64,000 nucleotides of DNA from a virus (Duplodnaviria > Heunggongvirae > Uroviricota > Caudoviricetes): IMG/VR virus record IMGVR_UViG_2788500396_000001, positions 859-64,858 of that record, one strand, 5' to 3'. Below, in pieces: positions 15,802 to 15,892 of the stretch. The position numbers and the translations under genes are program-made. Each line of letters begins with the position of its first letter. Position 1 is the first letter of the stretch. The notes beneath the pieces are model-generated. The model searched no databases, was not told the DNA's origin, and worked only from the letters and a program-made list of their open reading frames with translations.

Positions 15802-15892
15802 TGGTGGAAGCATCCGGGGTCGAACCGGAATCAGCCTATTATCTGTAGCTACGGGGTATAAGCCCGCTGTTTTACCATTAAACTATGCTTCC
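15802..15892 (-). tRNA. type II (long variable arm) tRNA with apparent anticodon TAT (UAU), discriminator A, encoded CCA
   Basis: 88 nt plus CCA. Anticodon stem GCGGG/CCCGT with loop CTTATAC, a 21-nt variable region, T-arm TCCGG-TTCGACC-CCGGA, acceptor GGAAGCA/TGCTTCC. Confidence 0.6.

Follow-up and report, generated by a model that had tools for sequence, protein, structure and literature searches.

How might a phage transfer RNA (tRNA) that reads AUA through a UAU anticodon be recognized as an isoleucine tRNA? The question is raised by a gene, here called tRNA(UAU), in a 64,000-nucleotide stretch of viral DNA (Caudoviricetes; positions 859 to 64,858 of IMG/VR record IMGVR_UViG_2788500396_000001; this whole stretch is "the window" below). 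The gene is 91 nucleotides (nt) long and occupies 15802-15892 on the minus strand. It belongs to a minus-strand array of 12 tRNAs at 13118-16469 that was identified by ARAGORN, which calls it tRNA-Ile with the anticodon tat. The isoleucyl-tRNA synthetase (IleRS) of Escherichia coli charges a UAU tRNA inefficiently, and in Mycoplasma mobile the synthetase residue that stacks on base 34 is changed (PMC3575796). We found that the variable arm of tRNA(UAU) carries a second hairpin whose loop contains GAU. We propose, and give about an even chance, that this hairpin stands in for the anticodon arm by presenting GAU to IleRS. Below, H1 is the decoding anticodon arm and H2 is the variable-arm hairpin.

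An earlier note on this DNA described a cloverleaf with a 7-bp acceptor stem, a D arm, a T arm, a discriminator A, an encoded CCA and a 21-nt variable region. The minus-strand reading and Rfam agree with all of these parts (Table 1). ARAGORN, whose call spans exactly 15802-15892, and Rfam also both place UAU at positions 34-36, as that note had it for the CTTATAC loop. The Rfam tRNA model (RF00005) matches completely (model positions 1-71) with 62.9 bits against a gathering score of 29 (E = 2.2e-12); it assigns CUUAUAC to the anticodon loop and treats about 18 nt of the variable region as an insertion. Neither ARAGORN nor the Rfam model offers a register that gives a Leu anticodon (TAA or TAG), which the earlier note had allowed for. 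We then aligned 27 distinct 91-nt members of the family, the window's tRNA included. In this alignment 99.8% of the cloverleaf cells are paired, and the covariation score is 0.69, as compared to 0.22 in shuffled alignments (0 of 500 shuffles reached 0.69). Changes on both sides were seen in 17 of 24 pairs, with compensation in 7 of 7 acceptor pairs and 4 of 5 T-stem pairs. Because of this near-complete pairing and strong covariation, we judge from its relatives that the gene is a functional tRNA gene and not a pseudogene, a possibility that had also been raised.

The 21-nt variable region with its hairpin is what one expects of a class II tRNA (more than about 10 nt forming a stem-loop), but the variable-arm loop (7 nt), the D arm (4-bp stem, 7-nt loop) and the anticodon (UAU) are not those of class II tRNAs. 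Nor is the body Leu-like, as had been suggested: the D arm, with its 4-bp stem, 7-nt loop and U12-A23 pair, is of the class I type. The gene has a 7-bp acceptor stem and a 5-bp T stem, not the 8/4 or 9/3 layout of the allo-tRNAs, and UAU, 7 bp and 4 bp where a tRNA-Sec would have UCA, an acceptor stem of at least 8 bp and a long D stem. It does have every feature by which we define a dual-hairpin UAU/GAU family, namely YUUAUAN in H1, then a 7-nt loop with GAU at positions 3-5, a 7/5 layout and A73.

The GAU in the variable-arm loop had gone unmentioned in the earlier note. The H2 loop is CAGAUAA, and its positions 3-7, GAUAA, correspond to G34-A35-U36-A37-A38 of an ordinary tRNA-Ile(GAU). The anticodon-loop set of E. 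coli IleRS consists of G34 or lysidine-34, A35, U36, (t6)A37 and A38 (PMC9976931). H1 of the window's tRNA departs from this set at U34 and C38, and the only complete G-A-U-A-A in the molecule is in the H2 loop.

To describe the conservation of H2, we used scans that each required some fixed motif, and all counts in this report are of distinct sequences that are related by descent. Our first broad scan required GATAA. A second scan made no demand on the H2 motif and required just CTTATAC, a long gap and a common T loop; its figures refer to the matches listed. Among these matches, 132 of 133 ARAGORN calls were tRNA(tat). The new loci yielded 82 distinct long-arm tRNA(UAU) sequences. In 79 of them a script recognized a variable-arm hairpin with a stem of 3 bp or more and a 7-nt loop in which positions 3-5 are GAU; inspection raised this to 81 of 82, as two of the three failures show CAGAUUA on an imperfect stem. 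The commonest loops were CAGAUUA (49), UAGAUGA (8), UAGAUUG (7) and UAGAUUU (6), so the conserved core is Y-A/U-G-A-U and the final two loop positions vary. When 87 distinct 17-mers were aligned around the loop, no column other than G, A and U was invariant. Six pair types occur at each of the three inner stem pairs, and a fourth pair is present in 72 of the 87. The most conserved pair is C29'-G41' (67 of 87), which the window's tRNA also has. In contrast, the variable-arm loops of Leu, Ser and Tyr tRNAs in the same loci are predominantly 3-5 nt, with a mode of 4 nt. The arm of tRNA(UAU), with its 7-nt anticodon-like loop, is thus not the Leu/Ser/Tyr-like arm that was first described. A triplet that stays fixed in register on a freely changing stem must be under selection, and these comparisons show the variable arm, as judged from aligned relatives, to be a selected copy of the anticodon loop of tRNA-Ile(GAU).

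Other uses of the loop were considered and rejected. In the window's tRNA, AUAA in H2 is complementary to UUAU in H1, which could make H2 a kissing partner of H1 or a mimic of the AUA codon. However, in most of the matches of the second scan G is followed by AUU or AUG instead (CAGAUUA, UAGAUGA), GAU is all that is invariant, and H2 of the tryptophan family described below lacks UGA. Pairing of GAU with AUC in the T loop is not favoured either: positions 59-61 vary (ACC here; GUC, CUC or UUC elsewhere) without any compensating change in GAU.

We also examined whether H1 is conserved as a decoding arm. A scan that left H1 free, with the D arm and the H2 loop as its sole anchors, recovered the H1 loop Y-U-U-A-U-A-N in 55 of 55 distinct sequences, on 26 different stems. 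TilS-independent decoding of AUA, which the earlier note had offered as one of two possibilities, is the reading that we favour, and the constancy of YUUAUAN in a scan that left the loop unconstrained agrees with it. With its 5-bp stem, U33, UAU and A37, H1 has the characteristics of a functional anticodon arm. H2, by contrast, usually has A33' and a non-purine at 37', with only 3-4 pairs. This difference argues against a tRNA-Ile(GAU) that merely bears a decorative insertion. Position 38 of H1 is C or U in 259 of 268 distinct family members (C38 in the window's tRNA), and the 29-41 pair is G-C in 162 of 268, the window's tRNA included, and C-G in 72.

The body of the tRNA points to isoleucine. 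The identity set of E. coli IleRS consists of the anticodon, t6A37, A73, C4-G69, U12-A23 and C29-G41 (PMC9976931). A73 is present in 261 of the 268 members (97%), including the window's tRNA (15805). U12-A23 is present in 232 (87%) and is invariant in the 91-nt class. C4-G69 is found in 161 (60%); the window's tRNA has A4-U69 instead. H1 of the window's tRNA has G29-C41, and it is H2 that carries C29'-G41'. The Levitt pair covaries, with A15-U48 in 203 members and G15-C48 in 45. Some family bodies are close to what we take to be the consensus of bacterial tRNA-Ile(GAU).

Two classes of relatives suggest how the design arose. In the Actinomyces class, the order after GCCCCCAUAGCUCAGCGGUUAGAGCA is H1, GUGC-CUGAUAA-GCAC and AGGUC, the customary variable loop. 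In Vibrio phage Luma, an ordinary tRNA-Ile(GAU) immediately precedes the long-arm gene, whose H2 region, AGCAA-CAGAUAA-UUGGC-UGGUC, aligns with the anticodon arm and variable loop of this neighbour, AACGA-CCGAUAA-UCGUU-AGGUC. The design looks like a tRNA-Ile(GAU) with a new hairpin inserted between position 26 and the old anticodon stem. In the window's tRNA, the linker GCUGAU after H2 can be read as two unpaired remnants of the anticodon stem and a 4-nt variable loop that ends in U48. (The ordinary tRNA-Ile(GAU) of Luma, LUMA_110 at L640:1419-1494, is itself unusual: its loop is CCGAUAA, with C33 in place of the near-universal U.)

If tRNA(UAU) inserts isoleucine, then AUA codons should lie where homologous proteins have isoleucine. 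AUA is used in the phage at 11.2 per 1000 codons, or 15.8% of isoleucine codons. The CCA-adding enzyme that is encoded in the window (18367-19722) has seven AUA codons, and we compared it to 116 homologues at about 48% identity. The homologues have isoleucine in 59% of cells at AUA positions, 48% at AUU, 34% at AUC and just 9% at Leu codons. Three of the seven AUA positions are near-invariant isoleucine and a fourth is mostly isoleucine in the homologues. There is thus no sign of recoding, which had been suggested as the other possibility for AUA, and the placement of AUA at isoleucine positions is what charging with isoleucine would predict. The named homologues are from Clostridia, which suggests that the phage may have a Firmicute host. 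Overall, we think it highly likely that the gene is a functional, AUA-reading, isoleucine-type tRNA.

A second, independent family has a parallel arrangement for tryptophan. A 96-nt tRNA at locus L001:5558-5653, reported by ARAGORN as tRNA-SeC(tca), combines a 7-bp acceptor stem with a normal D arm and G73. The hairpin in its variable region, CCUGU-GUCCAAA-GCAGG, has the loop of tRNA-Trp(CCA). A targeted scan found 76 such tRNA(UCA) genes, many of them with the acceptor stem of tRNA-Trp (AGGGGC.../...GCCCCU-G-CCA). These genes are 93-100 nt long with G73, and besides L001 they come from about 100 further IMG/VR loci (L229-L336, L457-L543). From an unbiased scan for UCA, with CTTCAAA, a long gap and the T loop as its only requirements, we obtained 28 distinct tRNA(UCA) sequences. 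The loop NUCCAAN was in register in 23 of these, and CCA lay inside a hairpin loop in the remaining 5. By a crude test of open reading frame (ORF) coverage, many of the contigs that carry tRNA(UCA) gain coding coverage if TGA is taken as sense (0.30 to 0.96 in one example). Amber suppressors did not show this design in the loci that we fetched, where the tRNA(CUA) genes have short variable loops.

The isoleucine and tryptophan families appear to share a logic: position 34 is changed to U to read a codon ending in A, and the variable arm retains the loop with the cognate anticodon. The feature common to IleRS and the tryptophanyl-tRNA synthetase (TrpRS) is that both read the anticodon. Tentatively, at slightly less than an even chance, we suggest a general route by which an anticodon can be changed while identity is kept: the original anticodon stem-loop becomes a variable arm that the synthetase reads, and a new hairpin after the D arm decodes. 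This route would cover at least isoleucine (UAU decodes and GAU is kept) and tryptophan (UCA decodes and CCA is kept).

For tRNA(UAU), the proposed mechanism is as follows. The tRNA would be charged with isoleucine and would read AUA through the UAU of H1, so that neither the host's TilS nor lysidine would be needed. In this way, it would supplement the decoding of AUA, which makes up 16% of the phage's isoleucine codons. H2 would be a selectively maintained copy of the tRNA-Ile(GAU) anticodon stem-loop, and not an arm of the Leu/Ser/Tyr type. As position 34 is read by bacterial IleRS, which is poor at charging UAU tRNAs, H2 would supply the determinants in cis: G34, A35, U36, usually A38, and the C29-G41 pair. 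Amino acid identity would thereby be separated from decoding. H2 would occupy the position of the anticodon arm when IleRS binds, and H1 would occupy the same position on the ribosome. A swap of H2 into this position is plausible because a variable loop of normal length is kept before the T arm. We infer both the binding of H2 by IleRS and the exchange of H1 and H2 from the sequences of the family.

Several observations weigh against this proposal. The evidence for the role of H2 is its conservation. In class II tRNAs, the variable arm is directed away from the site at which a class I synthetase binds the anticodon, and given this geometry, H2 would have to exchange positions with H1. A33' and a non-purine at 37' are found in most H2 loops (the commonest listed loop being CAGAUUA); lacking A37, they would also lack t6A37, which is a strong determinant for E. 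coli IleRS. Position 38' is A in only 67 of 87 H2 sequences. Just 3 canonical pairs form in H2 of the 91-nt class, to which the window's tRNA belongs, and for the variable region of this class RNAalifold favours an alternative, invariant CAG/CUG pairing; we treat this helix as a caveat only, as its pairs are near-invariant with little covariation support and it is absent from other body classes. One distinct sequence among the listed matches of the second scan lacks GAU. Lactobacillus phage 3-521 has a long-arm tRNA(UAU) (tRNA05, L641:1501-1591) with the hairpin ACAGC-GGACA-GCUGU. (The loop of this hairpin is 5 nt and has no GAU, and a similar IMG/VR member is in L188.) Phages also have short-arm tRNA(UAU) genes, which outnumbered long-arm genes by 7 to 1 in loci that were chosen for another reason. 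Finally, Bacillus subtilis and M. mobile use UAU tRNAs that have no such arm (PMC3919564, PMC3575796).

How else could the conservation of H2 be explained? It might serve something other than aminoacylation, such as a modification enzyme, a processing factor or a ribosomal contact that discriminates AUA from AUG, or it might be a relic of a duplication. There is a fidelity problem that such a contact could address, as UAU tRNAs misread AUG on E. coli ribosomes (PMC3575796). H2 does appear to derive from the anticodon arm of tRNA-Ile(GAU), so descent explains part of the resemblance, and extra variable-arm hairpins, capped by plain tetraloops, are also seen in phage tRNAs of other isotypes from these arrays, as a purely structural element might be. 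But a relic or a structural hairpin would keep neither an invariant GAU on a changing stem nor a 7-nt loop. Furthermore, the tryptophan family keeps CCA at the same place, so that the conserved item is the cognate anticodon, and we know of no factor that reads GAU or CCA in a variable arm. We therefore consider these explanations unlikely. A role for both hairpins in decoding is less probable still. If H1 read AUA in one state and H2 read AUU and AUC in another, with charging in the H2 state, then one gene would cover all three isoleucine codons. Each hairpin does have one canonical junction (H2 with a 4-5-nt variable loop before the T arm, and H1 one nucleotide past the D stem), the two anticodons belong to the same amino acid in the isoleucine family and in the tryptophan family (UCA and CCA), and U33 and A37 are kept in H2 of the tryptophan family and of the Actinomyces class. 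However, most H2 of the isoleucine family are ill-suited to decoding, with A33', U, G or C at 37', and stems of 3-4 bp, and many carriers have an ordinary tRNA-Ile(GAU) in the array as well (31 of 98 carrier loci; directly adjacent in Luma).

H2 could also be a defence decoy that mimics the loop of the host's tRNA-Ile to distract an anticodon nuclease, or that confers resistance to one. The window does encode a tRNA repair set (a Pnkp-RNA ligase fusion, a CCA-adding enzyme and RlaP), and position 33 deviates both in H2 (A33') and in the ordinary tRNA-Ile of Luma (C33). Still, we view a decoy as very improbable: the gene is chromosomal in at least about 36 species of Actinomyces and also in Xanthomonadales, and a decoy would leave unexplained the tryptophan family in phages that apparently read UGA as sense. 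To our knowledge, no nuclease targets tRNA-Ile(GAU). Lastly, the molecule might have a Leu-type class II body and be charged with leucine, so that AUA is recoded. The window's tRNA has a long variable region, A73 and an A15-U48 pair, all of which are shared with E. coli tRNA-Leu. There is also a precedent in nematodes, whose nev-tRNA-Ile(UAU) is charged with leucine in vitro (PMC3333845, PMC4300185); the statement in the earlier note that no canonical type II tRNA reads AUA overlooked this tRNA (PMC3333845). Nevertheless, the class I D arm is unlike those of the window's own tRNA-Leu genes, the profile at AUA is unlike that at Leu codons and has the isoleucine of the homologues, and the relatives have tRNA-Ile bodies along with the GAU loop. 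This makes charging with leucine hardly credible.

When we compared the window's array and tRNA to phages in GenBank by BLAST, we found no near match and only partial matches in distant mode. A scan of IMG/VR with the window's anticodon arm found 17 loci, most of which have a tRNA of about 91 nt that shares the D arm, anticodon arm and variable region, while the acceptor and T stems differ and are fully compensated. Altogether, the UAU/GAU design was found in hundreds of viral contigs. Copies in GenBank phages are mostly annotated as "tRNA-Ile"; one record has tRNA-Arg, and two Lactobacillus phage records have no annotation there. The gene of Acinetobacter phage vB_AbaS_qsb1 is 100% identical to an IMG/VR member. 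About 43 Vibrio phages carry the design, and phages of V. harveyi and V. campbellii are among the cultured carriers. Lactobacillus phages ENFP1 and 3-521 match at near full length, LpeD at 84% and Lpa804 partially; records of Erwinia, Xanthomonas and Mycobacterium phages match by search alone.

The design is also found in bacterial chromosomes. In a scan of GTDB, at least about 36 species of Actinomyces have one conserved long-arm tRNA(UAU) gene (such as L346:6749-6839). In the Actinomyces loci that we inspected, this gene usually adjoins tRNA-Leu(UAA), and in A. timonensis it is about 4 kb from the RNase P RNA gene. Among the GTDB matches listed, Xanthomonadales have a 99-100-nt version in complete chromosomes (such as L412:3291-3390 and L452:4344-4439), and several genomes of Pyrinomonadaceae have the design, two of them inside arrays of 20-24 tRNAs. 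Rhodobacterales and others are also among these matches, and the culturable carriers include Actinomyces and Stenotrophomonas; the bacterial carriers belong to several phyla. (In Xanthomonadales, the D arm of L452 and L406 is class II-like, GGCCGAGAGGUUAAGGC, and that of L412 is GCUC-AUGUUGGUCA-GAGC. ARAGORN wrongly gives these genes as tRNA-Val(tac) or as a tRNA-Ile(gat) of 73 nt; Rfam matches them at full length with 49-62 bits.) The presence of the gene in the chromosomes of Actinomyces, Xanthomonadales and other bacteria points to a function in translation and not to a trick of phages only. Although the dual-hairpin design is widespread, it is apparently undescribed in the open-access literature, where we found no description of a GAU or CCA loop in a variable arm.

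Known tRNAs and tRNA mimics each share some of these features. In the class II tRNAs (Leu, Ser, bacterial Tyr and Sec), the variable arm can matter for charging, as in Ser and Tyr tRNAs it is itself an identity element for the synthetase. The phage tRNA differs in its 7-nt loop with invariant GAU, in its 4-6-nt 3' linker that resembles a normal variable loop, and in its D arm. As far as we know, the loop sequence of a class II variable arm is not conserved as an anticodon. The operator of the E. coli thrS mRNA is a mimic of an anticodon arm that is bound by the synthetase, and viral tRNA-like structures are likewise mimics. In such cases, a 7-nt loop with the cognate triplet is recognized by an anticodon-binding domain without any decoding, as we propose for H2. 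However, the mimics regulate translation or tag viral RNAs, and H2 would serve the aminoacylation of its own tRNA. A putative anticodon mimic is also reported for the mRNA of a yeast aminoacyl-tRNA synthetase (PMC6542539).

The closest comparison is with tRNA-Ile(UAU), or "tRNA-Ile3," of M. mobile, Bifidobacterium, Neorickettsia and a suppressor of a tilS deletion in B. subtilis, which likewise has UAU without lysidine, an isoleucine body and A73 (PMC3575796, PMC3919564, PMC8450103). It shares both problems with the phage tRNA, namely recognition by IleRS and misreading of AUG. In M. mobile, these are met in a different way: Arg replaces the Trp of the synthetase that stacks on base 34, and the ribosome prevents misreading of AUG (PMC3575796). 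Bifidobacterium and Neorickettsia differ in having a eukaryote-type IleRS. Going by their descriptions of these tRNAs, the papers mention no long variable arm (PMC3575796, PMC3919564, PMC8450103). In contrast, the phage family has the extra GAU hairpin, and among its carriers are phages that infect hosts such as Vibrio and Acinetobacter, which are assumed to use TilS. The nematode nev-tRNA-Ile(UAU) and nev-tRNA-Gly(CCC) are class II-shaped, and the former likewise has UAU (PMC3333845, PMC4300185), but the phage family has an isoleucine-type body, a GAU loop and AUA at isoleucine positions. The allo-tRNAs of Acidobacteria are likewise from bacteria or phages, were found by mining metagenomes, and have a long variable arm and most often UAU; their acceptor and T stems are reported to be laid out as 8/4 or 9/3, and the amino acid they carry to be Ser or Ala (PMC5389517), whereas the phage family has the 7/5 layout and A73.

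Table 1. Parts of the tRNA(UAU) gene, in coordinates of the window
Feature	Position	Strand	Remarks
Acceptor stem, 5' strand GGAAGCA, nt 1-7	15886..15892	-	Pairs with 15806-15812; 7/7 pairs covary among 27 relatives
UA at positions 8-9; A at position 26		-	Minus-strand reading
D arm GUUU-AAUGGUA-AAAC, nt 10-24	15869..15883	-	Class I type, U12-A23
H1, decoding anticodon arm GCGGG-CUUAUAC-CCCGU, nt 26-42	15851..15867	-	ARAGORN, Rfam
Anticodon UAU, positions 34-36, reads AUA	15858..15860	-	Plus strand is ATA there
Variable region, 21 nt, AGCUACAGAUAAUAGGCUGAU	Between H1 and T arm	-	Minus-strand reading
H2, variable-arm hairpin CUA-CAGAUAA-UAG, nt 45-57	15836..15848	-	Proposed surrogate anticodon arm
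GAU at H2 loop positions 34'-36'	15841..15843	-	Same as the anticodon of the major tRNA-Ile
Linker GCUGAU, H2 to T arm	15830..15835	-	Minus-strand reading
T arm UCCGG-UUCGACC-CCGGA, nt 64-80	15813..15829	-	4/5 pairs with compensatory changes
Acceptor stem, 3' strand UGCUUCC, with A73 (15805) and encoded CCA (15802-15804)	15802..15812	-	

The surroundings of the gene include other genes related to tRNA. The earlier note placed tRNA(UAU) next to an HNH insertion, and indeed an HNH/NUMOD endonuclease ORF at 15187-15600 lies between tRNA(UAU) and a tRNA-Thr. The array is flanked by the tRNA repair set: the Pnkp-RNA ligase fusion (743 amino acids) at 8263-10494, the CCA-adding enzyme, with an HD domain, at 18367-19722, and an RlaP-family nucleotidyltransferase at 19697-20773. 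On the minus strand at 13467-13550, between tRNA-Ser and an ORF, there is a sub-threshold match to the RAGATH-27 RNA (38 bits against a gathering score of 76, E = 0.012). Elsewhere in the window, 938-4348 encodes the large subunit of ribonucleotide reductase (1136 amino acids), split by a LAGLIDADG homing-endonuclease intein, and 40043-41161 encodes a TnpB or IS605 OrfB-type protein with HTH, OrfB and Cas12f1-like TNB domains.

We also noticed other unusual tRNAs in the loci that we collected. An 88-nt tRNA(CAU) at L040:5824-5911 has the variable region CC-CUUAUAA-GG with a UAU loop, apparently the reverse arrangement, and there are other odd tRNAs in this locus. Phage tRNAs for Asn, Thr, Glu, His and Met, 85-88 nt long, have extra variable-arm hairpins (L003:970-1056, L005:1353-1437, L076 and others). 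Several of these hairpins are capped by tetraloops (GUAA or GUGA), which gives a class II shape to class I isotypes.

If H2 is read by IleRS, or its counterpart by TrpRS, then identity and decoding would lie in separate arms of one tRNA. This would be a natural solution to a problem in genetic-code engineering, namely how to change the anticodon of a tRNA when the synthetase reads the anticodon. For annotation, the families matter in that ARAGORN labels the tryptophan-type genes as tRNA-SeC and shortens or mislabels those of Xanthomonadales. The proposal would add a further route for decoding AUA to lysidine, agmatidine, ava2C and altered synthetases. It would explain how phages of hosts that use TilS are able to have UAU tRNAs, and also how a UGA-reading tRNA could be charged with tryptophan in phages with UGA as sense. 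If the general route is correct, then AUA could be read without TilS, and UGA could be read as tryptophan, using the unmodified synthetases of the host.

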